Below, in pieces: positions 1,610-12,738 of a stretch of 13,011 bases of DNA. Location: positions 1-13,011 of the forward strand of contig JBMFRB010000018.1 of NCBI GenBank assembly GCA_049968255.1, written 5' to 3'. Under the pieces are notes generated by a model, which made no database searches, was not told the DNA's origin, and saw only the letters and a program-made list of their open reading frames with translations. The first letter of the stretch is position 1; every line of letters begins with the position of its first letter. Source of the stretch: Candidatus Sumerlaeaceae bacterium. Lineage in GTDB: Bacteria > Sumerlaeota > Sumerlaeia > Sumerlaeales > Sumerlaeaceae. The position numbers and the translations under genes were made by a program.

Positions 1610-2107
1610 CTAACGAACAAAGGAACGGAACATCACATGCGCGAGCAGCCCAGCAATTGGCGGGAAAAACAAGGTGCACGCCAGGCGCGCCACCACAAAG
1701 CGCCATCCTAACATGCCGGTCTCTAATGGCAAAAGTAGGACATGGGTCAAGGCTCCCGCGGTGAGGAAAGCCACGAGACTCCCCACGCCGGCGCCAAACT
1801 TCAAGGCAAGAGAAGCGATGATCGTTTGCACCACTGGCCCACCGGGAGCCACCACGCCCGCGAGAGCTCCCAGCAAAATTCCGCGGATTCCGGCTTCCTC
1901 GCTAAGCCAGCGCGCAACAGCCTCTCGCGGAACGAGCACCGCCAGAAGCCCAAGCAGGAGAAATGTGAGGATCACTAACGGAAGCGCCTGAAGAAACTGC
2001 TGTCCCGCTGCCCGTACTCCCTGAGCTAATTGTTCCGGAGATCGGAGAGCTAACAGAAAAATAATGATAAGACATACAATTGTTAGCAAGACAATGGAGA
2101 CCAGCAT
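1610..2107 (-). CDS. Small integral membrane permease (DUF318/ArsP-like, single repeat)
   Basis: About 165 aa, strongly hydrophobic with several TM-like segments, and family-like motifs VPREAVARWL..EAGIRGILLGALAG..PGGP..GAGVGSLVAFLT. Start placed at ATG 2107 (MLVSIVLL), because the 31 upstream codons are hydrophilic and overlap a hairpin. Confidence 0.75.
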   Translation of the reverse strand: MLVSIVLLTIVCLIIIFLLALRSPEQLAQGVRAAGQQFLQALPLVILTFLLLGLLAVLVPREAVARWLSEEAGIRGILLGALAGVVAPGGPVVQTIIASLALKFGAGVGSLVAFLTAGALTHVLLLPLETGMLGWRFVVARLACTLFFPPIAGLLAHVMFRSFVR

Positions 2108-2142
2108 GGCAGATAGTCCCTGTTTGTTTTGAGCTGTGAGAC

Positions 2143-2179
2143 GAGGCGAGCCAGCGTCCCTGGCACGGGACGTTGCCTC
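2143..2179. other. Intergenic stem-loop between the pilin and permease genes
   Basis: CAGCGTCCC(2152-2160)-TGGCAC-GGGACGTTG(2167-2175), extended by GAGG(2143-2146)/CCTC(2176-2179). There is no U-tract on the minus (coding) strand. Confidence 0.5.
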
Positions 2180-2202
2180 ACCTTTTTGCCGCGAGCTCAT
2201 TG

Positions 2203-2796
2203 CTACTTCGTAACAATGTTGGGGCTGCGAACGATGTCGCCATTACTGACAGTCCCGTTTGTGGGATCGTAATAGATGTGCTGTGCCAGGTCGAGCCGGT
2301 CGCGGTCTGGTCCCGCCCCCGCAAGTATCCACGTCCCGTAACGAGCCTTCATCTGCGCAATCACTGGAGGTGAAGAAGGCTGTGTGACGTAGGTGAACCA
2401 GTCGAGGTTGGTGTAAAAATAGCGCGGATAAAATGCCTGCCACGTGGAGCTGACGTTGGGGTTTACGATAAACGGGTCGGTGGGAATGGAGGTGATGTAT
2501 GCGATGGGCGTGGTGATGCTGTCCATGAGAAACTTGTGCGCAGGCGATCCCGCTCCATTGTGTTGAGGCAATTGCAATGATCCATCGGCTAGGAGCTCTC
2601 CCATCAGGGGATAGCTATTGTTGTCCACAGCATACGACTCGATGGCGACAGCCTGCGTGCGCATGTCCGCGTGTACGCGCGCAACCTTCGAGCGCACTTG
2701 TGCTTCAAGAAAGTTTGGAACCGCAATCGCAGCCAGTATGGCGATGATTGCCACGACAATGAGAAGTTCGATGAGCGTGAATCCGCTGTTTCTCAT
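2203..2796 (-). CDS. Prepilin-type N-terminal cleavage/methylation domain protein (type IV pilin / GspG-like pseudopilin)
   Basis: Class III signal peptide MRNSG|FTLIELLIVVAIIAILAAIAVP with Gly-1, Phe+1 and Glu+5, then NFLEAQVRSKV..DMR..AIESY.VDNN.YP and C-terminal YDPTNGTVSNGDI. ATG 2796 is preferred over TTG 2841. Confidence 0.92.
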   Translation of the reverse strand: MRNSGFTLIELLIVVAIIAILAAIAVPNFLEAQVRSKVARVHADMRTQAVAIESYAVDNNSYPLMGELLADGSLQLPQHNGAGSPAHKFLMDSITTPIAYITSIPTDPFIVNPNVSSTWQAFYPRYFYTNLDWFTYVTQPSSPPVIAQMKARYGTWILAGAGPDRDRLDLAQHIYYDPTNGTVSNGDIVRSPNIVTK

Positions 2797-2855
2797 TTTT
2801 AGCGGAGAAAAATCCTTTCTACCTCTATAGCTTATTTTCAATATTGCATGGCTTG

Positions 2856-4667
2856 CTACTTTGCGACTTCGACAGGAATTTTCGTGCCGACAAACTGATT
2901 GTGTCGGCCCCGGGGCACATAATGGGTGTGTAGCAGTTCATGCGACCGGTGGCCTAGCGGCTGGCCAAGGAACTCTTCGTAGAGTTTCTGAATGAAGGGG
3001 TTTTCATGCGATTTGCGTTTAGGTTTGCTGGCGTCTTCAGCGTAGATCGCCCGCATGCGTGCTTCTCGTTCCGCCTTTGTCGTCGGCTTGGGCTGGCCAC
3101 CGCCGGCAATACATCCGCCGGGGCACCCCATGACTTCGATAAAGTGATAAGGCGAAGTGCCGTTGGCTACGTCTCTCATAAGGCGTTTTGCACCGCTGAG
3201 ACCACTGGTGACGGCAACGCGCACCTCGACGCCCTCCAGGAAGTTGAACTCTGGTTTTGTGCCCTCGATCTTGATTGCCGCCTCTTTGACCTGCGAAAGG
3301 CCGCGCACTGGCGTGACCTCGAGCCGCTCGAAAGGAATTTCGCGACCGGTTACGATCTCGTACACCGTGCGCAGCGCTGCTTCCATCACGCCGCCTGTGG
3401 TGCCGAAGATATCGGCGGCTCCCGTTGAGAAGCCGAGGGGATCATCGAACTTTCCATCCGGTAATTCCGTGAATTCGATGCCTGCGTCCCGAATCATGCG
3501 TGCGAGTTCACGCGTCGTGATGACAGCATCAACCGCGGGCATGCCATTGATGAACATTTCCGGGCGCGTAATCTCAAATTTCTTTGCGGTGCAGGGCATG
3601 ACCGACACAACGAAGAGGTCTTTTGGAGCCACGCCGAGTTTCTCCGCATAAAAGGTTTTGGCGAGGGCGCCCAACATCATGTGCGGCGATTTGCACGTGG
3701 AGAGATGATCGAGCTCGTGGGGGAATTCATGTTCGATGTATTTGATCCAGCCCGGTGAACACGAGGTGATCATGGGTAGGGTAGCGTGCGCGCCGGTGAA
3801 TGCCGCAGCGACACGCTGGAGGAACTCGTGGCCTTCCTCGATAATGGTAAGGTCTGCAGCAAAGTTCGTGTCGAAGATGTCATCGAAGCCAATTTCGCGC
3901 AGCGCTGTTGCCATCTTGCCGGTGACGATTGTGCCCGGTGGATAGCCGAATTCCTCGCCGAGGGCCACGCGAACTGCTGGTGCCGTCTGAACAATGACGC
4001 GCTTGCGCGGATCGAAGATCGCGTTCCAGACAGCCTCGGTGGAATCTCTTGCCAAGAGAGCCCCCACGGGGCAGACCATGACGCATTGACCACAGTTCGT
4101 GCAATTGACGCTGTTGAGCGGGAGCTCGTCCGCCGGACCAATTACCGAATGAAACCCACGCTTCTGGACGTTGAGAACACCAACGCCCTGGATCTCGTTG
4201 CACACAGTCACACAGCGTCGGCAAAGAATGCACTTCGAACTGTCGCGCACAATCGAGGGACTTGATAAATCCACGAATGTTTTCGAGCGCTCACCCTCGA
4301 AGCGGAACTCGGAAATCTGGATGAGTTCGCCAAGTTTCTGAAACTCGCAATTTTGATTGCGTAGGCAGCTCAGGCAGTTGCGCGGGTGGTCAGAAAGCAT
4401 AAGTTCGTAAAGAATTTTTCTTGCGCGCTTGACCCGTGCAGTGTTGGTGCGCACGACCATTCCTTCGCGCACAGGCACCATGCAGGAGGCTTGGAGTGTT
4501 CTCGCCCCCTCGATTTCGACCACGCAGATGCGACACGCACCCACCTGATGAACTCCTTCGAGGTAACAGAAGTGCGGAATCATGATGTTGTTGGCTTTTG
4601 CCGCTTCGAGCACGGTCATCCCGGGCTCGGCTTGGACCTGTTTTCCATTGATTGTCAGCGTGATCAT
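2856..4667 (-). CDS. hydA: Group A [FeFe]-hydrogenase catalytic subunit (HydA/HndD-type)
   Basis: H-cluster motifs TSCSPGW, MPCTAKKFE and EVMGCPGGCIAGGGQP. N-terminal [2Fe-2S] (FC..GACRIC..ASC), His-ligated [4Fe-4S] (HPRNCLSCLRNQNC), 2x[4Fe-4S] (CILCRRCVTVC, CTNCGQCVMVCP), and C-terminal small-subunit motif SHENP..HELLHTHY. Confidence 0.97.
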   Translation of the reverse strand: MITLTINGKQVQAEPGMTVLEAAKANNIMIPHFCYLEGVHQVGACRICVVEIEGARTLQASCMVPVREGMVVRTNTARVKRARKILYELMLSDHPRNCLSCLRNQNCEFQKLGELIQISEFRFEGERSKTFVDLSSPSIVRDSSKCILCRRCVTVCNEIQGVGVLNVQKRGFHSVIGPADELPLNSVNCTNCGQCVMVCPVGALLARDSTEAVWNAIFDPRKRVIVQTAPAVRVALGEEFGYPPGTIVTGKMATALREIGFDDIFDTNFAADLTIIEEGHEFLQRVAAAFTGAHATLPMITSCSPGWIKYIEHEFPHELDHLSTCKSPHMMLGALAKTFYAEKLGVAPKDLFVVSVMPCTAKKFEITRPEMFINGMPAVDAVITTRELARMIRDAGIEFTELPDGKFDDPLGFSTGAADIFGTTGGVMEAALRTVYEIVTGREIPFERLEVTPVRGLSQVKEAAIKIEGTKPEFNFLEGVEVRVAVTSGLSGAKRLMRDVANGTSPYHFIEVMGCPGGCIAGGGQPKPTTKAEREARMRAIYAEDASKPKRKSHENPFIQKLYEEFLGQPLGHRSHELLHTHYVPRGRHNQFVGTKIPVEVAK

Positions 4668-4673
4668 GGCCGT

Positions 4674-7600
4674 TCACCCTCTCCGATCGCATCGCAGGCA
4701 GCGCATAGCCTCGGCGATGGCGTTCAATTTGTGAAATCCGACGACGACTTCGCGGAAGTTGCGTTTGCGTGCCTCAGGATCCAGCGAGCGCATGGGGAAT
4801 CGCTCGTGTTCGGCGATTTCCTTTTCCTCGCTGGGCGCAGGAATCTCGATCGCTTCGCCTTTGTTGAGCTCACCGGTGCCGCCCAGATACTTGTCCACGT
4901 TCTGTGCCGCTCTTTTTCCGTCGGCGATGGCGGTAATCACGACGTCGGCCCCACGCACAACGTCGCCCCCGGCGAACACACCTTCCATCGTGGTCATCAT
5001 CGTGCGCGGATCTGTTTCGAGTGTGCCCCAGCGCGTCGTGCGAACCTCGCTCTTGTCAATGAAGGGTAAATCGGAATGTTGGCTGATGGCGGGGATTACG
5101 GTGTCAGCTTCGACAATGAATTCCTCGCCAGCGAGGGGCTGGGGTTTGCGGCGGCCGGAAGTATCGAAGCCGCGCAATTCCATCCGCACGCACTTCACGC
5201 CCTGCACTCGGCCATTGCCAAGGAACTCGACCGGTGCCACAAGCTGACGTATCTCGATCCCTTCTTCGAGTGCTTCTCGGATCTCGCGCTTGTCGGCCGG
5301 CATGTCGTCGATGAGGCGGCGATAGAGAATGGTCACCTTTTGCGCGCCGAGGCGAAGCGCGGTGCGGGCTGCGTCAAAAGCCGTGCTCCCACCGCCAATG
5401 ACAACGACGCGTTTGCCCACATCCACACGTTTGCCAAGATTCACTTCGCGCAAGAAGGAGAGACCGTGATACACACCAGCTTTGTCCTCGCCCGGAAGGT
5501 TGGTCTTATTGGGGAACTGTGTGCCGGTCGCGATGTAAATCGCGTCGTGGGTGCGCTGCAGCTCGGCGAAAGTCACGTCGCGCCCCACCTCGGTATTTGT
5601 GAGAATCTTCACGCCCACCTGCTCGATCATGCGAATCTCTTTTTGAAGAATCGCCTTGGGCAGGCGGTACTCCGGGATTCCCAAAGCAAGCATGCCGCCA
5701 GGCACCGGCAAGGCTTCGTAGACGGTGACGCTGTAGCCAAGGCGAGCGAGATAGTAAGCGCATGTTAGACCAGAGGGGCCCGCCCCAATGACTCCCACTG
5801 ATTGCGCCTTTTTTGGGAAGACGAGGTCGAGGCGGGGCTCCTCGTTATGGAAAACATAATCTGCGGCGAAACGTTTGAGGTCGCAGATTGCCACCGGTTC
5901 ATCGAGCTGAGCGCGCCGACATTTGCTCTCGCAAGGGTGGGTGCAGACGCGACCGCAAATTGCGGGAAAAGGATTCTCGCGCCGAACAAGATAATAAGCG
6001 TCGCGCGGTCGGCCTGCTGCGATGAGAGCCACGTAGCCAGGCACGTCCACCCCTGCCGGACATGCATTCTGACAGGGTGCTCTAAAGAGGTCGGCGCACA
6101 CGCTGGCACGGCAATGCTTGTCGTTGATGTGCTCTTCGTACTCGTCGCGGAAGTAGCGAATCGTGGAAAGAACCGGATTTCCCGCCGTTTGTCCAAGACC
6201 ACACGTAGCTGTCTCTTTGCAGGTCATGGCCAGTTCTTCGAGCAGGGCAATGTCCCCGGGTTTGCCCTGGCCGCGCGTAATCCTTTCCAGGATTTCGAGC
6301 ATGCGCTTGGTTCCAATGCGGCAAGGCACACATTTTCCGCACGACTCGTCTTGGACGAAATCCATGAAGAAGCGGGCCACATCCACCATGCATGAATCGG
6401 TATTCATGACGATGAGACCGCCCGACCCCATAATGGTTCCAAGGTGACTGAGCGAGTCGTAATCAATGGGCGTGTTGAGATGCTCGGCTGTCAGGCATCC
6501 ACCGGAAGGCCCGCCCGTCTGGGCGGCTTTGAAAGGTTTGCCTTTGCGCACTCCTCCAGCGATGTCGTAGATTATTTCGCCCAGGGTGATGCCCATCGGC
6601 ACCTCCACGATGCCCGTGTTTTCGACAGCGCCAGCAAGCGCAAAAACTTTTGTCCCTTTGCTTTTCTCGGTGCCAATGGAGGCAAACCACTCTGCACCCT
6701 TTAGCATGATCACCGGAATGTTGGCAAACGTCTCGACGTTATTGATGATCGTCGGCTTGTGGAAAATCCCACTCTCGAAGGGAAAAGGTGGTTTTTGGCG
6801 AGGCTCGCCGCGTTTGCCCTCAACACTAGCCATGAGAGCGGTTTCCTCGCCGCACACGAAAGCTCCGGCCCCGATGCGTATCTCGATGTCGAAGTCAAAG
6901 CCCGAGTCGAGGATGTTTTTTCCCAACAAACCAAATGCGCGCGCCTGCGTAAGCGCGTGGGCCAACCGGTCGACAGCAAGGGGATATTCCGCACGAACGT
7001 AAACGAAACCTTTCGTGGCGCCGATAGCATAAGCGCCGATGGCCATGCCCTCGATGATGGCGTGGGGATCGCCTTCAAGAAGCGAGCGGTCCATAAACGC
7101 CCCGGGGTCGCCCTCGTCGGCATTGCAGACGATGTATTTCTGATCCGCCTTGGTCTTTTGACCGGCCTCCCACTTGATTCCGGTGGGAAATCCTCCGCCG
7201 CCGCGCCCACGCAGTCCACTGCGCTTGATCTCTTCAATCACGCTGATGGGCGAGCGCTTCGTCAGCGCGTCGGCGAGGGCATAGTAACCGTCGTGGGCGA
7301 TGTAGGCCTCGATCGAGTCGTAGGGCATGCTTCCACAGCGCGCAGTCACGACGCGCATCTGACGCCGGAAGAAATCAATCTCAGAGAGGCGAGGCACAAA
7401 CTTTTCCCGTTCGGCATCGTAAAAGCAAAGTTGCTCGACCACGCGGCCGCCGAGGAGATGCTCGTTGACGATGCGCGCCACGTGCTCGGGCTGGAGTTTC
7501 GTGTAGAGAATGCCCCCTGGCTCGACGACCAAAGTCGGGCCAAGATGGCAACTGCCCAGACAGCCGGTCTCGTGGATAAGTGTTTTATGGGCGAGCCCAG

Positions 7601-7784
7601 CGCGTTGGAGCTCAGCCTCGAGCGCACGACGCACGTTCATGCAGCCCGAGGACACGCATCCTGCGCCCGCGCACACGAGGAGGCGGAATTTGGCGGCATC
7701 GCGAGCCTTGAGATAGAGAGCTTTGATTTTGTCGAGATCGGCCGCGGATCTTATTTTCTTAGCTTCTGGTTTGCCTTTGGCCAT
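4674..7784 (-). CDS. hydB: NuoF/HydB-like flavoprotein subunit fused to a GltD/NfnB-like FAD/NAD(P)H oxidoreductase module
   Basis: Residues 1 to ~565: thioredoxin-like [2Fe-2S] (CAGAGC..GCLGSC), NuoF motifs SGLRGRGGGGFPTG, NADEGDPGAFMDR, GAGAFVCGEET, GGPSGGC and ESCGKCVPCR..CGLG. Residues ~569-1036: PCQNACP, ICGRVCTHPCESKC, IGAGPSG, GIPEYRLP, IGGGSTAFD..YRR, VFAGGD and EAMRCLRC. SD AAGGAG overlaps the upstream stop codon. Confidence 0.93.
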   Translation of the reverse strand: MAKGKPEAKKIRSAADLDKIKALYLKARDAAKFRLLVCAGAGCVSSGCMNVRRALEAELQRAGLAHKTLIHETGCLGSCHLGPTLVVEPGGILYTKLQPEHVARIVNEHLLGGRVVEQLCFYDAEREKFVPRLSEIDFFRRQMRVVTARCGSMPYDSIEAYIAHDGYYALADALTKRSPISVIEEIKRSGLRGRGGGGFPTGIKWEAGQKTKADQKYIVCNADEGDPGAFMDRSLLEGDPHAIIEGMAIGAYAIGATKGFVYVRAEYPLAVDRLAHALTQARAFGLLGKNILDSGFDFDIEIRIGAGAFVCGEETALMASVEGKRGEPRQKPPFPFESGIFHKPTIINNVETFANIPVIMLKGAEWFASIGTEKSKGTKVFALAGAVENTGIVEVPMGITLGEIIYDIAGGVRKGKPFKAAQTGGPSGGCLTAEHLNTPIDYDSLSHLGTIMGSGGLIVMNTDSCMVDVARFFMDFVQDESCGKCVPCRIGTKRMLEILERITRGQGKPGDIALLEELAMTCKETATCGLGQTAGNPVLSTIRYFRDEYEEHINDKHCRASVCADLFRAPCQNACPAGVDVPGYVALIAAGRPRDAYYLVRRENPFPAICGRVCTHPCESKCRRAQLDEPVAICDLKRFAADYVFHNEEPRLDLVFPKKAQSVGVIGAGPSGLTCAYYLARLGYSVTVYEALPVPGGMLALGIPEYRLPKAILQKEIRMIEQVGVKILTNTEVGRDVTFAELQRTHDAIYIATGTQFPNKTNLPGEDKAGVYHGLSFLREVNLGKRVDVGKRVVVIGGGSTAFDAARTALRLGAQKVTILYRRLIDDMPADKREIREALEEGIEIRQLVAPVEFLGNGRVQGVKCVRMELRGFDTSGRRKPQPLAGEEFIVEADTVIPAISQHSDLPFIDKSEVRTTRWGTLETDPRTMMTTMEGVFAGGDVVRGADVVITAIADGKRAAQNVDKYLGGTGELNKGEAIEIPAPSEEKEIAEHERFPMRSLDPEARKRNFREVVVGFHKLNAIAEAMRCLRCDRRG

Positions 7785-7795
7785 GGCGGGTCTCC

Positions 7796-8299
7796 TTAGC
7801 TACACATTTCCAGAATGCGATTGAGCTTGTCGGGGTTGACCTGGCGTACGACGGTGTCATTGACCATAACGGCGGGCGCTAGCCCGCAAGCGCCGATGCA
7901 ACGCATGACCTCGAGCGTGAACTTGCGATCGGGGGTCGTGCCCCCAACGGCGATGCCCAACTGCTGACCCAGCCTTTTGACGATTTCAGCGCCGCCCCGC
8001 ACGTAGCAGGCCGTGCCCAGGCAGACGCGGATCGTGTATTCGCCCCGCGGCTTCGTGCTGAAGAAAGAGTAGAACGTGGTGACGCCGTAAACTTCGGACA
8101 GCGGAAGGTCCAGACGGTCAGCGATAAGCTGCAAGACGTGCAGCGGAAGATAGCCATAGATGGCCTGAGCCAAATGCAGCACTTGGATCAAGCATCCTTG
8201 CTGGCCTTTGAAGTCCTCCACAATCTGCGCGATTCGGGCTAGCTTTTCTTCCTCTGTCTCCTCACCGCACTGGCAAGTCTGTTCGAACTTTGTATCCAT
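7796..8299 (-). CDS. hydC: NuoE/HydC/HndA-like [2Fe-2S] subunit
   Basis: LIQVLH.AQ.IYGYLP, GVTTFYSFF, CLGTAC and CIGACGLAP motifs. Start placed at ATG 8299 (MDTKFEQ), with GGAGG 5 nt upstream, giving 167 aa. Confidence 0.94.
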   Translation of the reverse strand: MDTKFEQTCQCGEETEEEKLARIAQIVEDFKGQQGCLIQVLHLAQAIYGYLPLHVLQLIADRLDLPLSEVYGVTTFYSFFSTKPRGEYTIRVCLGTACYVRGGAEIVKRLGQQLGIAVGGTTPDRKFTLEVMRCIGACGLAPAVMVNDTVVRQVNPDKLNRILEMCS

Positions 8300-8388: not shown

Positions 8389-8416
8389 GTTTTAGCAGAT
8401 CTCCCTATTTTGTGAA
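8389..8416 (-). promoter_or_regulatory. Candidate sigma70 promoter of hydCBA
   Basis: Minus strand reads TTCACA (8416-8411), 16 nt, then TAAAAC (8394-8389) preceded by TGn (extended -10). The -35 lies inside the palindrome. Identified by eye only. Confidence 0.3.
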
Positions 8417-8427
8417 ATTTGTCACAA
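8410..8427. promoter_or_regulatory. Rex-type operator (also fits the CRP-family consensus) upstream of the hydrogenase operon
   Basis: TTGTGAA-ATTT-GTCACAA matches the Rex consensus TTGTGAA-N4-TTCACAA at 13 of 14 positions and contains TGTGA-N6-TCACA. It lies about 110 bp upstream of hydC. Confidence 0.75.
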
Positions 8428-8747: not shown

Positions 8748-10091
8748 TCAGGGGTAGAGTCCGCGTCGCTCGGTGGCTTCGGCAACGGTCCGCACGCCTA
8801 TGAGCAGAGCCGCGGTGCGCAGGTCGCACTTTTCGCGCTCGGCCATTTTACACACGCGATTGAAAGCGTTGACCATGACCTTCTGGAGTTGCTCGTTGAC
8901 CTGTTGCTCGGTCCAGAAGAACGACTGGAGTCCCTGGACCCACTCGAAATAACTCACTGTCACACCGCCGGCATTTGTGAGGATGTCAGGGAGGATGAGA
9001 ATTCCCCGGTTGCGCAAGATCTCGTCGGCTTGCGGAGTGGTTGGGCCATTCGCCGCTTCGGCCACGATGCGAGCTCGAATTCGGTCCGCGTTCGCAATCG
9101 TGATTTGGTTCTCGACCGCGGCTGGCACAAGCACATCACACTCAAGCTCGAGAAGCTCCGCCGGCGAAATTGGCTCAGCGTTGGGAAACCCTGGGACGCG
9201 GCCCGTGCGATCCACGTGCACAGCTAAGGCTTCCACGTCGAGACCTTTGGGATGATAGACGGCGCCGTACTGATCGGCCACGGCGATGACTTTCATGCCA
9301 TATTCTCGGTGTGCGATGAGAGCAACATTGCGCCCCACGTTGCCGAAGCCTTGGACAACAATCCGGGCATTTTTCGTGCGCATTTTCTGGCGCGCCATTG
9401 CCTCGGCCACCACGTGCATCACGCCACGTCCCGTGGCCTGATTACGGCCATGCGACCCTCCCAACACGAGCGGCTTGCCCGTCACTGCTCCCAGTACCGT
9501 CACGCCTTTGCCCATGCTGTAGGTGTCCATAATCCACGCCATGGTTTGCTCGTTTGTGTTCATATCGGGCGCGGGCACATCGAGTTCCGGACCGATGAAG
9601 GGGCTAAGCTCGAATGTGTAGCGGCGCGTCAGGCGCTCCACTTCGCCCATTGACATCTGGCGTGGGTCGCAGCAGACACCGCCTTTTGCCCCACCGAAGG
9701 GGATATCCACAATGGCGCATTTCCACGTCATCCACATGGCCAGGGCGGCGATCTCGTTTACGTCCACGGAAGGACTGTAGCGGATGCCGCCCTTGCCCGG
9801 GCCGCGGCTGGTGTTGTGCAGTACCCGGTAGCCCTGGAAAAGCTCAATGTGGCCGTCGTCCATGCGCACGGGAAAACAGACCGTGAGAATGCGCTCGAAG
9901 CGCCGCAGCATGTTGAACATATCCTGCGAAAGGCCAAGGCGCTCCGCAGTCACGCGAAGCTGGTAGAGAGCCATATCCAGCGGGTCCACCGCACCCGCTT
10001 TGCGCTGGGAGACGGCCACGCCGACGGGCGTAAGCGACAGCGACGGGGCCAGAGAAGAGATCTTGGTGCAATCCGATCCTTTTTTCGTCAT
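8748..10091 (-). CDS. gdhA: Glutamate dehydrogenase (Glu/Leu/Phe/Val dehydrogenase family, hexameric ~45-50 kDa type)
   Basis: Motifs GPGKGGIRY, MTWKCA..PFGGAKGG (catalytic Lys), DVPAPDMNT, VTGKP..GGS.GR..ATGRG, QGFGNVG, EAANGPTT and NAGGVTVSYFEWVQ. ATG 10091 has an SD GAGGGG; GTG 10106 is an alternative start. Confidence 0.95.
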   Translation of the reverse strand: MTKKGSDCTKISSLAPSLSLTPVGVAVSQRKAGAVDPLDMALYQLRVTAERLGLSQDMFNMLRRFERILTVCFPVRMDDGHIELFQGYRVLHNTSRGPGKGGIRYSPSVDVNEIAALAMWMTWKCAIVDIPFGGAKGGVCCDPRQMSMGEVERLTRRYTFELSPFIGPELDVPAPDMNTNEQTMAWIMDTYSMGKGVTVLGAVTGKPLVLGGSHGRNQATGRGVMHVVAEAMARQKMRTKNARIVVQGFGNVGRNVALIAHREYGMKVIAVADQYGAVYHPKGLDVEALAVHVDRTGRVPGFPNAEPISPAELLELECDVLVPAAVENQITIANADRIRARIVAEAANGPTTPQADEILRNRGILILPDILTNAGGVTVSYFEWVQGLQSFFWTEQQVNEQLQKVMVNAFNRVCKMAEREKCDLRTAALLIGVRTVAEATERRGLYP

Positions 10092-10335
10092 TTTACCCCT
10101 CACCACCAGGAATGAGCGCGCTCATCATGGTGGCGCCAAAAGCTGAATTGCAACACGTTCCTGCGGTAAAAATCGAAAAAGCGTGGAAAATGTCTCCGGG
10201 CCAGCTGGACGCCAGGCGCGACTTGCCCCGCAAAGCATGGGCACCATGAATTTTCCTCCAATTTTGTAAACAAAGGCGAGGGGTAAGCTTGCATCGCCCC
10301 TCCAGGCGTGGCTAGAAGCTGCACCGAAAGGTTAT

Positions 10336-12738
10336 ATGACAAAAACAGTTCGTTCGAAAAAGGCGACCCCGAACAAGCACAGCGAATGGCGTGAGCAAGA
10401 AGCTGGGGCCAATCGGGAACGTCTGCCCGTCATTCCTCTCAAGGACGTGGTGATATTCCCCCAGTGTGTGTCGCCGCTTTACGTCGTTCGGCGCCGCTCG
10501 GTCACAGGCGTAGAAGAGGCGCTCGGCAGCGACAAGCGGGTATTCGTGGTGGCCCAGAAGCAGCCCGATGTGGAAACCCCGACGCGCAACGATTTGTACG
10601 ACGTGGGCACGATTGCCGAGATTTTGCAGACCCTGCGGCTACCTGACGGCTCGCTGAAAATCCTTGTCGAGGGCCAAGCCGTAGGGCGCATCCTCGCATT
10701 CACGCAAAGCGAGCAGCTCACCGAGACCATCGTCGAGCAGCTCGAGGTTGTGCGTGAATCCTCGAAGGAAATCGAAGCGCTCCTGCGACTTGTCCTGAAC
10801 CAGTTCGAAACCTACGTTTCACTGAGCGACAAGATTTCGGACGAGCTCTTTTTGACAATTCGCAATTTTGATGACCCCGTGCAGGTCGCCAACGCGATTG
10901 CGCATTACGCCAATTTCAAAACACCTGCCAAGCAGGAGATTCTCGAGTCGTTTACGACGAGCGATAAGCTGGAGAAGCTCTCGCGTATCTTGGCCAGTGA
11001 GAACGAGCTGCTCGAACTCGAGGACAAAATCATGCAGCAGGTGAAGTCGCGCATCAGCAAGACGCAAAAGGAGTTCTTCCTCAACGAGCAGCTCAAGGTC
11101 ATCGAGCGCGAACTGGGCATTGACCAGGAAGACGAGTACGAGATCGAGGAGCTCAGCGAGCGCATCGAGAGCTCGAAGATGAGCGACGAGGCGCGCGAAA
11201 AAGCACAGCGCGAGTTAGCTCGTATGGCGAAAATGGCCCCCATGTCGCCCGAAGCCACCGTGTCGCGCAGCTACATCGAGTGGTTGGTGGACCTACCCTG
11301 GGGCAAATTCACAAAGGACAAAACCGACCTGAATAAGGCGCAGGAACTTCTCGACGCCGAGCATTACGGCCTGCGCAAGGTCAAGGATCGCATTCTGGAG
11401 TTTCTAGCTGTGCATCAGCTCACGCGCAACGCCAAGGGGCCAATCCTGTGCCTGGTGGGTCCGCCAGGCGTTGGCAAAACTTCGCTGGCCCGCAGCGTGG
11501 CGCGTGCGCTCGGACGCAAATTCGTGCGCATATCGCTGGGCGGTGTACGCGACGAAGCCGAGATTCGCGGCCACCGGCGCACCTACGTCGGGTCGCTGCC
11601 AGGCCGCATCGTCCAAGGCATGAAGAAGGCAGGCTCGATGAACCCCGTCTTCTTGCTGGATGAAATTGATAAAATGTCATCAGATTTTCGCGGCGATCCC
11701 GCAAGCGCGTTGCTCGAAGTGCTCGACCCAGAACAGAACAAGCTTTTCAACGACCATTATTTGGAAGTGGATTTCGACCTCTCGCACGTGCTCTTCCTGA
11801 CGACGGCCAACACGGTGGCGGGAATTCCTATTCCACTGCTTGATCGCATGGAAGTGATCCGCATCCCAGGCTACACGGAGGAGGAAAAGCTGCATATCGC
11901 GCTCGAGTTTCTCGTGCCCAAGCAAGTTAAAGCCACGGGGTTGACGCGTCGGCGTATCGCTTTCACGCCCGAGGCCATCACGAGCATCATTGTCCATTAC
12001 ACGCGTGAAGCTGGGGTGCGCAATCTCGAACGCGAAATTGCCGCCATTTGCCGGCGTGTGGCCCGCGAAATTGTGGCCAACGGCGGCAAAACGCGCCGGG
12101 TTGTGGTGACGCCCGAGCTCGTGCGCGAGTACCTTGGCCCTGTGCGCTACCGCGATCTCGAGATCGAGAAGAAGCCAGAAATTGGAGTGGCGACAGGCTT
12201 GGCGTGGACCGAGGTCGGCGGCGAGATCCTGCCCACCGAGGCGATCGTCATGCGTGGCCGCGGCAATCTCATGCTCACCGGCCAGATGGGCGAGGTCATG
12301 CAGGAAAGCGCGAAAACCGCCCTGAGCTACATCCGCTCGCGCATGGATCAACTCAATATTCCGCGAGATTTTTATCGCACGTTCGATATCCACATCCACA
12401 TTCCCGAAGGCGCCGTGCCCAAAGATGGCCCGAGCGCTGGCGTGACCATGACCACGTCGTTGGTGAGCGCGCTGACCAAACGCCCCGTGCGCCAGGACGT
12501 GGCCATGACGGGCGAGATCACTCTGCGCGGCAAAGTGCTTAAGATCGGCGGCCTGAAAGAGAAAATTCTGGCGGCACACCGCGCACACATCCATCAAGTC
12601 ATTATTCCGCAAGAGAATGCCGACGAGCTCGAGGAGATCCCCGAAGAGATCCGCAAGGACATGAAATTCACTCTTGTGGAGACGCTCGACGAGGTGCTTG
12701 AGACGGCCCTCGTTCCCTCCCCGCGCAAAGCCAATTGA
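10336..12738 (+). CDS. lon: ATP-dependent Lon protease (endopeptidase La, LonA)
   Basis: 800 aa with an N-terminal Lon domain ([13 protein letters not shown]), Walker [21 protein letters not shown], Walker B FLLDEIDK, catalytic Ser in PKDGPSAG and catalytic Lys in IGGLKEK. Confidence 0.98.

Follow-up and report, generated by a model that had tools for sequence, protein, structure and literature searches.

A HydABC-type [FeFe]-hydrogenase operon in a Sumerlaeaceae genome with a predicted StnC/NfnA-like FAD/NADP(H) module at the HydB C-terminus

The window, which is the whole stretch of 13,011 nucleotides analysed here (positions 1 to 13,011 of contig JBMFRB010000018.1 of a Candidatus Sumerlaeaceae bacterium), contains three leftwards-transcribed genes in the order hydC-hydB-hydA, and all features of these genes described below are on the minus strand. 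The first gene, hydC (bfuC; 7796-8299), codes for a NuoE-like thioredoxin-fold [2Fe-2S] subunit of 167 aa counted from an ATG that has GGAGG 7–11 nt ahead of it, with TTG 8377 as an alternative opening of the ORF; hydB (bfuB; 4674-7784) codes for a protein of 1036 aa combining a NuoF-type core and a GltD-type FAD/NADP(H) module, and hydA (bfuA; 2856-4667) codes for a product of 603 aa identified by Pfam, NCBIfam, and its motifs. The intergenic gaps measure 11 nt (7785-7795) and 6 nt (4668-4673); a Shine-Dalgarno-like stretch accompanies both, lying inside the gap or in the adjoining 3' end of the preceding gene, and the minus-strand ORFs confirm the tight operon and the length of HydB given in the original prediction. 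The gene order is also seen in related loci, with an H-domain HydA present in 8 of 10 and the other two ending at a contig edge; in locus L008 a small additional [2Fe-2S]-like ORF separates hydB from hydA, where the window has only the 6-nt gap. A glutamate dehydrogenase gene (gdh, 8748-10106) lies upstream on the same strand, but a functional link was rejected, as the adjacency of gdh and Lon is found only in two same-genus genomes and is not kept in the other 8 of 10 related loci. The best explanation of the predicted products is that the window encodes a three-subunit HydABC/Bfu-type [FeFe]-hydrogenase with the sub-type I BfuABC architecture.

HydC matches the Pfam family 2Fe-2S_thioredx (PF01257) with 170.9 bits as well as the NCBIfam HoxE/NuoE families, and through PF01257 it has the thioredoxin-like [2Fe-2S] domain (IPR002023) by which BfuC is recognised in the Bfu family (PMC9304861). 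HydA is organized, according to Pfam, as a [2Fe-2S] domain, a His-liganded [4Fe-4S], 2x[4Fe-4S], the H-cluster domain (3099-4004), and a small-subunit-like tail, without an extra C-terminal [2Fe-2S] domain, and scores 878 bits with NCBIfam NF040763 (cut-off 765). The three H-cluster motifs P1, P2, and P3 are all intact (TSCSPGW, MPCTAKKFE, and GCPGGCIAGGGQP). The first of these was considered as an unusual Cys loss beside the H-cluster (L1 motif), but this was rejected since TSCSP is common: of 52 HydA ORFs in which the motif could be read, 31 have it, 28 of these being beside plain HydB genes among the matches listed, and Ser is described as usual at that motif position (Zheng & Huang, PMC11406978).

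The sequence features of the bifurcating core are retained in HydC and in the first ~565 residues of the predicted HydB, as alignments show: the [2Fe-2S] of HydC and, in HydB, the N-terminal [2Fe-2S], the FMN/NAD(H) site with its neighbouring [4Fe-4S], and the His/Cys hinge motif. HydB and HydC are a textbook binding pair. The N-terminal thioredoxin-like [2Fe-2S] domain of HydB (residues 28–108, 7461-7703; Pfam 2Fe-2S_thioredx; C38, C43, C75, C79) is followed by the NuoF core (6129-7229; Pfam) with the FMN/NAD(H) site, SLBB, and a [4Fe-4S] bound by C482, C485, C488, and C528, and the cysteines of both are invariant among 120 aligned homologs. Pfam assigns Complex1_51K at residues 186–357 (164.2 bits) and NADH_4Fe-4S at residues 468–552 (119.9 bits), and SLBB (residues 381–429) scores 23.3 bits, below the cut-off of 27 bits; with this sub-cut-off SLBB included, HydB has the FMN, SLBB, and NuoF [4Fe-4S] parts that define the core of BfuB (PMC9304861).

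The N-terminal half of HydB best matches HydB chains (7q4v_B with 745 bits, then 8a6t_B and 7p5h_B; 745–601 bits), and HydB is 50% identical to the genome's own canonical HydB across residues 15–578. In an AlphaFold model (pLDDT 83.7, pTM 0.80), the core aligns by VIA with HydB/BfuB chains at Z of 45–51 and an rmsd of about 2 Å; for the HydABC HydB chains, Z is 45–50 and the TM-scores are 0.84–0.95 relative to target. At the end of the core, EEHINDKHCRASVC, originally placed near nt 6095–6140, is located at nt 6096-6137 (residues 550–563) and aligns with EAHIHRKRCPAGQC of the canonical HydB. It includes the hinge motif H552...C558...C563 (6096-6131), whose His and Cys residues are, with C150, invariant in the 120 homologs; we infer that the four are Zn ('B2') ligands, and the NfnB Zn site is described as three Cys and one His (PMC12018979).

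Eight residues past the hinge, as the domain searches confirm, the 2x[4Fe-4S] ferredoxin-like tail of HydB is replaced by a predicted GltD-type module of ~480 aa that is circularly permuted and has two [4Fe-4S] sites together with FAD and NADP(H)-type sites. Pfam finds no Fer4 dicluster families in HydB at E <= 0.01, the region being occupied by Fer4_20, unlike the canonical HydB of the same genome, which shows Fer4 at residues 589–641; the usual C-terminal domain is missing, as originally claimed, and judged from Pfam HydB does not have the ferredoxin-type domain (IPR017896, clusters B3/B4) used to define BfuB (PMC9304861). The Fer4_20 dicluster domain (residues 557–647, 5844-6116; 88.4 bits) is followed by the FAD- and NADP(H)-binding Rossmann domains (residues 663–956, 4917-5798; Pyr_redox_2, 111.8 bits), which align to NfnA/StnC/NfnB chains and include GAGPSG (667–672), R707, GGGSTAFD (797–804), and YRR (821–823). 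Residues Y821, R822, and R823 are invariant in the 120 homologs, and YRR is present in 33 of the 34 fused HydB rows of our site table. The domain set expected at the outset was recovered by Pfam for Complex1_51K, NADH_4Fe-4S, Fer4_20, and Pyr_redox_2, with no Fer4, the exception being SLBB as noted above.

The C-terminal tail of HydB (residues 993–1036, 4677-4808) ends in RC1029LRC1032 and aligns at residues 993–1033 to residues 3–43 of 4ylf_B, with HydB 570–972 aligning to 4ylf_B 46–462; the correspondence of the tail to the NfnB N-terminus identifies the circular permutation. By alignment to 9bov_A, in which cluster A7 is bound by C108, C147, C151, and K170 (PMC11829005), the distal cluster would be liganded by C571 and C622 (together with C1029 and C1032) and the proximal cluster by C575, C614, C618, and K637, and all of the proposed ligands are invariant in the 120 homologs. 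With the hinges aligned, C571-x3-C575-P coincides with the last C-x3-CP of the first ferredoxin motif of the canonical HydB, placing the dicluster domain at the sequence position of the ferredoxin-like domain. The number of residues aligned by VIA is barely greater for a chain in which the ferredoxin-like domain is included (527 for 9bp5_B) than for one without it (523 for 9bov_B), which weakly suggests an equivalent spatial placement of the module.

The original prediction of a GltD/NfnB-like module was right in its architecture, but the generic label does not stand, as the alignments and site table point to the permuted, Lys-liganded StnC/NfnA type. The best matches of the C-terminal half are 9bov_A (451 bits), 9n5u_A, and 8oh5_C (451–395 bits), with NfnB chains scoring lower (4ylf_B 367 bits, 5jca_L 332 bits), and residues 565–1036 of the model align by VIA to 8oh5_C 98–568 with Z of 43.7 and an rmsd of 2.5 Å over 453 residues. 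Position 637 is Lys in 34 of 34 fused HydB rows and in 5 of 5 StnC-like rows, and the C-terminal CxxC is present in all of these except L009, whose contig ends there, whereas three NfnB/GltD-type rows, including the NfnB of this genome, have Glu for Lys637 and no C-terminal CxxC. The conserved R707 has its counterparts in NfnB R201 and StnC R239. HydB thus shares with StnC/NfnA the permutation (C1029/C1032), K637, R707, and Y821-R822-R823, but its module is the C-terminus of a NuoF-like subunit and not an insertion in a NuoG-like one. The predicted module is closest to the NADPH-oxidising, non-bifurcating module of StnC/NfnA, and in StnC the FAD is reported as non-bifurcating and the proximal cluster as Lys-liganded (PMC10482914, PMC11829005).

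Chance is excluded, as is the assembly chimera that the original prediction had named as a possible flaw, by the full-length fusions seen in 119 of the 120 best protein clusters (1023–1069 aa, at least 97% query coverage, 66–92% identity) and by the synteny kept in relatives. A 308-nt contig of run X1 (at least 99% alike) spans the fusion junction (5939-6246), but since run X1 may be the source sample it is not independent evidence. The tree of NuoF cores places the window within a clade of 27 rows, all of them fused (SH-aLRT 98), and a contig scan with NuoF-core patterns yielded at least 80 loci, an arbitrary sample rather than a census.

The NuoF-GltD hydrogenase architecture occurs widely across phyla and has been described before from genome data. 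It was noted in a 2018 genome paper (PMC6163223) and named 'sub-type I BfuABC' by Zheng & Huang in 2024 (mSystems, PMC11406978), so that early doubt about its novelty was justified and the window adds one more member to a known architecture. In the main text of the 2022 Bfu survey (Schut et al., PMC9304861) we found no mention of GltD, glutamate synthase, or fusion forms; BfuB was chosen there by a ferredoxin-type 4Fe-4S InterPro domain, so the fused form was probably missed. Literature searches turned up no biochemical or structural study of the architecture. Apparently new relative to what the papers say in describing it is that the module belongs to the non-bifurcating Stn type and not to the NfnB type, and that the known maturases are not found in this family.

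The sub-type I domain definition (PMC11406978) has B3/B4 replaced by a DPD_II (Fer4_20) dicluster and a C-terminal FAD/NAD(P) domain, represented here by Fer4_20 at 557–647 and Pyr_redox_2 at 663–956; HydA without the extra C-terminal [2Fe-2S] and Ser as the fifth residue of motif P1 are also shared. We found no architectural difference between the window and this type as described there, which is known from genomes only, and the bfuD found as a fourth gene in some of its clusters is absent from the window. The electron-bifurcating HydABC enzymes of A. woodii (7Q4V), T. kivui (8A6T), and T. maritima (7P5H) have the same three subunits, with an H-cluster HydA and HydC, but their HydB chains, of 599–630 aa, carry a ferredoxin-like 2x[4Fe-4S] domain at the end, where the window HydB has the ~480-aa FAD/NADP(H) module. 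StnABC/NfnABC (8OH5, 9BOV, 9N5U) share the permutation with C-terminal CxxC, the Lys ligand, the FAD Arg, and YRR, and also a NuoE/NuoF-type core; however, the module sits at the electron input in the NuoG-like StnC/NfnA rather than in a NuoF-like HydB, and these complexes retain the ferredoxin-like tail of BfuB and have no H-cluster. As a counterpoint to the reading given below, the same module type in Stn/NfnABC serves the mid-potential input rather than the low-potential exit. The NfnAB/NfnSL large subunit (4YLF_B, 5JCA_L) and GltD have the fold and cofactor motifs of the module, but with an N-terminal CxxC, Glu instead of Lys at the proximal cluster, a bifurcating FAD, and NfnA/NfnS as partner. 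Group A2 'glutamate synthase-linked' [FeFe] hydrogenases of HydDB have a GltD-type protein encoded beside hydA, as here, but the A2 call requires a neighbour with GltD domains 'but not NuoF' (PMC5037454), and the window HydB has both.

Our main reading, to which we give a probability of roughly 45%, is that the enzyme couples H2, NAD(H), and NADP(H), as the original prediction reasonably suggested, and that NADP(H) takes the place of ferredoxin on the low-potential branch. Electrons would be exchanged between FMN and the H-cluster along the chain of HydA clusters, NAD(H) would react at the FMN, and the branch from the HydC [2Fe-2S] through two [4Fe-4S] clusters would terminate in FAD and NADP(H) rather than ferredoxin; the net reaction would be 2 H2 + NAD+ + NADP+ <-> NADH + NADPH + 2 H+, free of ferredoxin, and H2 evolution from NADH and NADPH would be its likely direction in vivo. 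Using physiological potentials of –280 mV for NADH and –380 mV for NADPH and the H2 Eo' of –414 mV (PMC9304861), the computed H2 limit is about 150 Pa for NADH and NADPH together, compared with about 3 Pa for NADH alone. NADP(H) at about –380 mV is also reducible from 1-bar H2 without bifurcation, so thermodynamics does not demand tight coupling. The exit point of the low-potential electron in HydABC-type enzymes lies at the heart of the debate on bifurcation by a single FMN and its neighbouring clusters, and nature provides in the fused HydB a variant whose exit is apparently hard-wired to NADP(H) instead of diffusible ferredoxin; the enzyme would serve as a handy test object for bifurcation. 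If the coupling is obligate, the low-potential branch would be able to serve a two-electron hydride acceptor, providing a new route linking H2 with the NADPH pool.

Ferredoxin is known to dock at the B3/B4 Fd-like domain, to which the BfuC cluster swings (PMC12018979), and the dicluster domain lies at the same sequence position. Ferredoxin may remain a substrate, with the module clusters acting as the B3/B4 pair and docking it like the NfnB distal cluster, and with FAD/NADP(H) as a fourth port, which would amount to a hydrogenase and an Nfn-like transhydrogenase within one complex; the same fold gives electrons to ferredoxin in NfnAB (PMC10482914), and the original prediction had allowed operation with or without ferredoxin. 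We regard this as unlikely, as the module is of the StnC/NfnA type (Lys) and not the ferredoxin-reducing NfnB type (Glu), and in Tsi NfnABC the ferredoxin site lies between the C-terminal domain of BfuC and the small Fd-like domain (PMC12018979), a pocket that a module of ~480 residues would probably alter. Loss of the ferredoxin arm may instead have ended bifurcation, leaving NADH/FMN and NADPH/FAD to exchange with the H-cluster independently in an uncoupled NAD(P)H-linked hydrogenase. Non-bifurcating NADH-dependent enzymes with a differing beta subunit do exist (PMC7311640), and at standard potentials H2 can reduce either nucleotide without coupling, but we likewise doubt this account: the non-bifurcating sub-type II forms are described as being without the B3, B4, and B5 cluster domains (PMC11406978), and the window's complex retains, as invariant features, the N-terminal [2Fe-2S] and the hinge motif of HydB together with the cluster ligands of HydC. 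Zheng & Huang (PMC11406978) postulated that the FAD works as a second, canonical centre of bifurcation alongside the FMN-FeS centre. The conserved FAD-site R707 is consistent with this, but we consider it very improbable: the FAD is reported as non-bifurcating in StnC/NfnA, the nearest characterised relatives of the module; the NfnB Glu tied to the low-potential cluster is Lys in 34 of 34 fused rows; and the operon codes for no NfnA/NfnS-like partner that would bring a second FAD.

A caveat on both the predicted H-cluster of HydA and the coupling of H2, NAD(H), and NADP(H) comes from the maturases. Profile searches found no HydE, HydF, or HydG over cut-off in this genome, which is 95.75% complete (best scores 48.9, 97.4, and 53.3 bits, against cut-offs of 254.6, 325.6, and 312.2), or in the 12 other genomes of the family (0 of 13 in all), although strong HydA matches are present in 6 of the 13. 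A ThiH-like radical-SAM ORF (P0124; G000 C2:180065-181462) was rejected as a hidden HydG because 9 of 12 family relatives carry it, among them four without a HydA match (G006, G008, G010, and G011). HydA could be without its [2Fe] subcluster in this lineage, and the complex a remnant or a pyridine-nucleotide oxidoreductase rather than a hydrogenase, comparable to StnC with its vestigial formate-dehydrogenase-like part. This is hardly probable, as all three H-cluster motifs are intact, HydA is 74–95% identical across five family relatives with TSCSPGW retained, and a PAS-containing sensory-type [FeFe]-hydrogenase homolog is likewise kept; moreover, genome bins may miss an island. Active [FeFe] hydrogenases have also been reported in organisms without known maturases (PMC11216029). 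In its most novel form, the coupling reading describes a ferredoxin-independent, pyridine-nucleotide-only Bfu enzyme that makes or consumes H2 with NADH and NADPH obligately coupled and whose H-cluster is, in this lineage, built without HydE, HydF, and HydG; we consider the full combination quite unlikely. It would extend to bacteria the problem of maturase-free [FeFe]-hydrogenases, which has until now been raised for archaea and some eukaryotes.

A putative Rex-like operator, TTGTGAAATTTGTCACAA (18 bp, 8410-8427, no strand assigned), is located about 110 nt upstream of the hydC ATG. It has one mismatch to the Rex consensus, and is the sole match with at most one mismatch in the window; by the same consensus there are 4 such sites in the entire 3.1-Mb genome, and 6 of 10 related loci have a site with at most two mismatches directly ahead of hydC. 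Contig C6 carries a Rex-type gene, which codes for a Put_DNA-bind_N and CoA_binding protein. The putative operator hints at H2 evolution at high NADH, since induction of hydCBA at a high NADH/NAD+ ratio would make this the likely direction in vivo. We note that the genome also encodes a canonical HydABC, an NfnAB (as its own pair on contig C4), and a Hox-type [NiFe] enzyme, so the fused enzyme would be dispensable for any single link; the PAS-containing sensory-type homolog is a further [FeFe]-hydrogenase relative retained alongside them.

On the minus strand of a 13,011 bp contig, in a bin of 3.12 Mb and 31 contigs that is 95.75% complete, the genes hydC (7796-8299), hydB (4674-7784) and hydA (2856-4667) follow one another in tandem. 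The ORF coordinates confirm the tight operon of the original prediction, with gaps of 11 and 6 nt and a 1036-aa HydB, and each of the motifs it quoted is found at its given position. Shine-Dalgarno-like stretches lie within or adjoining the 3' ends of the upstream genes. By Pfam, HydC is a NuoE-type [2Fe-2S] protein and HydA (603 aa) has the full cluster chain and H-cluster domain; HydA scores 878 bits against NCBIfam NF040763 (cut-off 765) and includes the motifs TSCSPGW, MPCTAKKFE and GCPGGCIAGGGQP.

HydB is organized as a thioredoxin-like [2Fe-2S] domain (residues 28-108), Complex1_51K (186-357), a weak SLBB match (23.3 bits, below cut-off), NADH_4Fe-4S (468-552), Fer4_20 (557-647) and Pyr_redox_2 (663-956), and Pfam detects no ferredoxin-type dicluster family at E <= 0.01. 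This is the anticipated domain order lacking a terminal Fer4, with SLBB sub-threshold. The N-terminal half is closest to solved HydB/BfuB chains, on which the AlphaFold model (pLDDT 83.7, pTM 0.80) superposes with Z of 45-51 and an rmsd of about 2 A (VIA). The four cysteines of the N-terminal [2Fe-2S] cluster, the four of the FMN-proximal cluster and the hinge residues H552/C558/C563/C150, candidate zinc ligands, are invariant in 120 aligned homologs.

The fused HydB is not an artefact. The possibility of an assembly chimera is dismissed by the best 120 HydB clusters, 119 of which are full-length fusions (1023-1069 aa, coverage of at least 97% of HydB, identity 66-92%) from sources including Sumerlaeota, Holophagales, Armatimonadota, Clostridia and Hydrogenispora ethanolica, and by the ten related loci fetched, all of which have hydC 5' of the fused hydB; an H-domain HydA follows in eight, the other two stopping at contig edges. 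A single public-run contig bridges the HydB junction at an identity of at least 99%, although this run may be the source sample. When the genome itself and 40 relatives were searched, nine genomes contained full-length fused HydB, and in two more it is split into two ORFs (G002) or truncated at a contig end (G039). The split copy, in a genome of the same genus (L109, 5317-8500 of contig C5), comprises overlapping ORFs of 321 and 782 aa with the break inside the NuoF core, caused either by a frameshift or by misassembly.

The closest match of HydB 568-1033 is the GltD-type domain of Caldicellulosiruptor NfnA (9bov_A, 451 bits), with Thermococcus NfnA (9n5u_A) and Sporomusa StnC (8oh5_C) also among the closest, and NfnB (4ylf_B, 5jca_L) and true GltD scoring below these. 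Thermotoga maritima NfnB aligns in two pieces, HydB 570-972 with NfnB 46-462 and the tail 993-1033 with NfnB 3-43, and the module is therefore circularly permuted; StnC/NfnA proteins share the identical permutation, with an RC-x2-C pair at the extreme C-terminus. Passages of PMC11829005 give C108, C147, C151 and K170 as ligands of the FAD-proximal (A7) cluster of the Caldicellulosiruptor protein, and carrying these across the 9bov_A alignment assigns C575, C614, C618 and K637 as probable ligands in HydB; the cysteines left over, C571, C622, C1029 and C1032, would then bind the distal cluster. All of these, together with YRR, are invariant in the 120 homologs. In the site table, lysine occupies position 637 in 34/34 fused and 5/5 StnC-like rows, the C-terminal CxxC is present in all of these except L009, which is truncated by a contig end, and YRR is retained in 33/34 fused rows (the exception is L027). 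In contrast, all three NfnB/GltD-type rows, including the genome's own NfnB, have glutamate and no C-terminal CxxC.

A canonical HydB (644 aa), encoded elsewhere in the genome on contig C6, is 50% identical to the fused protein across residues 15-578. In the alignment, fused EEHINDKHCRASVC pairs with canonical EAHIHRKRCPAGQC and the canonical CxxCxxCxxxCP shrinks to C571-x3-C575-P, so the dicluster domain begins eight residues past the hinge, where the ferredoxin-like B3/B4 domain stands in the canonical sequence; the missing CxxC appears to be supplied by the C-terminal tail. The superposition extends to model residues 627-631 on chains with the ferredoxin-like domain, with only a few more residues aligned than on chains without it, and gives a faint hint that the two domains are equivalent in space.

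Judged by sequence, three elements are present in the operon: a subunit for the H-cluster, an FMN/NAD(H) subunit whose bifurcation-core signature is intact, and a covalently attached FAD/NADP(H) module. We propose that NADP(H) would take the place of ferredoxin as terminus of the low-potential branch, coupling H2 to both nicotinamides (2 H2 + NAD+ + NADP+ <-> NADH + NADPH + 2 H+), a tentative reading to which we give a probability of roughly 0.45. In published structures (PMC12018979, PMC11829005), electrons reach the B3/B4 domain from the mobile BfuC [2Fe-2S] cluster, and ferredoxin docks there. It is unlikely that ferredoxin remains a substrate of the fused enzyme. An uncoupled NAD(P)H hydrogenase is just as doubtful. 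From the physiological potentials that Schut et al. cite (PMC9304861), we calculate a ceiling for H2 evolution of about 150 Pa for NADH plus NADPH, about 3 Pa for NADH alone and about 0.15 bar for NADH plus ferredoxin. That the FAD is a second bifurcation site, as proposed in a passage by Zheng & Huang (PMC11406978), is highly improbable given the lysine ligand and the kinship of the module to Stn, whose StnC-type FAD/NADP(H) module is described as non-bifurcating in part of PMC10482914.

HydE, HydF and HydG are not found above cut-offs in this 95.75% complete genome, nor in any of the 12 other genomes of its family. Six of these 13 in all (completeness 80-96%) have strong HydA matches with hydA intact, and in G004 and G005, two family relatives, the only such match is that of the fused operon. 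The same searches were positive elsewhere in the class (all three genes in four genomes, HydE and HydG in a fifth) and in the T. maritima and B. thetaiotaomicron controls. The non-detection could reflect an island lost in binning, an unknown maturation route as discussed for archaea (PMC11216029), or an incomplete H-cluster; we see little chance that this HydA lacks a complete H-cluster. Testing also led to the rejection of a ThiH-like radical-SAM gene as a possible substitute for the maturases.

The architecture is already described from genomes, and the window holds a further member of an uncharacterised kind; the doubt about novelty in the original prediction was justified, as passages of two papers show. 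One, from 2018, reports a trimeric hydrogenase of Vallitalea guaymasensis having an 'enlarged beta-subunit with a GltD binding domain' in place of the two-[4Fe-4S] domain (PMC6163223), and Zheng & Huang 2024 (PMC11406978) define 'sub-type I BfuABC' by replacement of the B3/B4 domain, exactly as in this HydB, and note a Ser in motif P1. The HydDB criterion for group A2 is 'GltD ... but not NuoF' (PMC5037454). Schut et al. 2022 picked BfuB by a ferredoxin-type InterPro domain (PMC9304861), a selection that would probably leave out the fused HydB. A literature search limited to main articles found no biochemical or structural work on a fused-HydB hydrogenase.

In a NuoF-core tree (107 rows, quick IQ-TREE, LG+G4) the window falls inside a 27-row clade (SH-aLRT 98) in which all are fused: 11 rows from loci with an H-domain HydA, four from truncated loci and 12 database proteins without context. 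Eleven fused rows lie elsewhere, ten within a mixed clade of Stn-type and formate-dehydrogenase-type cores and L067 alone at the base, and the fused label requires at least seven changes, four forced by well-supported branches. At L067 (5335-12466; Verrucomicrobiota), a fused HydB is followed in order by a second HydC, by a further HydB that lacks a C-terminal domain altogether, and by HydA.

The survey of this architecture next to hydA covered 80 loci, an arbitrary sample among the matches listed, and at least 16 of these encode a fused NuoF-GltD ORF. HydA is downstream in at least five; at least five adjoin molybdopterin formate-dehydrogenase-type genes, at least two adjoin a HoxU-like protein and a Glu_synthase-domain protein, at least two precede an ORF with a methylene-THF-reductase C-terminal domain, and at least three are truncated by contig ends, with L055 entering two classes. 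The fused flavoprotein is therefore not specific to hydrogenases but serves as a reusable module. The formate-dehydrogenase-type, HoxU-like and methylene-THF-reductase contexts are those of L071, L079, L081, L054, L055, L040, L086 and L027; the molybdopterin subunit of L081 is in two ORFs (356 and 538 aa), possibly broken at a selenocysteine codon.

A putative Rex-like operator, the near-perfect palindrome TTGTGAAATTTGTCACAA, is located at 8410-8427, about 110 nt 5' of hydC. Only four sites in the genome, this one included, have at most one mismatch to a Rex consensus, and a similar site is immediately 5' of hydC in 6/10 related loci; a Rex-type gene adjoins the canonical hydrogenase. This predicted control points to induction of hydCBA when NADH accumulates, and therefore to H2 evolution as the direction.

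About 60 nt 3' of hydA, with no terminator-like site between, is a pair of genes (1610-2841, minus strand), one for a prepilin-type N-terminal-methylation protein (MRNSGFTLIELL...) and the other for a small membrane protein; the pair is kept 3' of hydA in all five family relatives having the operon. On the 5' side are a glutamate dehydrogenase-like gene (8748-10106, minus) and lon (10336-12738, plus), whose adjacency is retained within the genus only among the ten related loci compared. The genome also encodes a canonical HydABC, a sensory-type PAS hydrogenase homolog and Rex on contig C6, a HoxEFU-type [NiFe] hydrogenase cluster on C16 and an NfnAB pair on C4.
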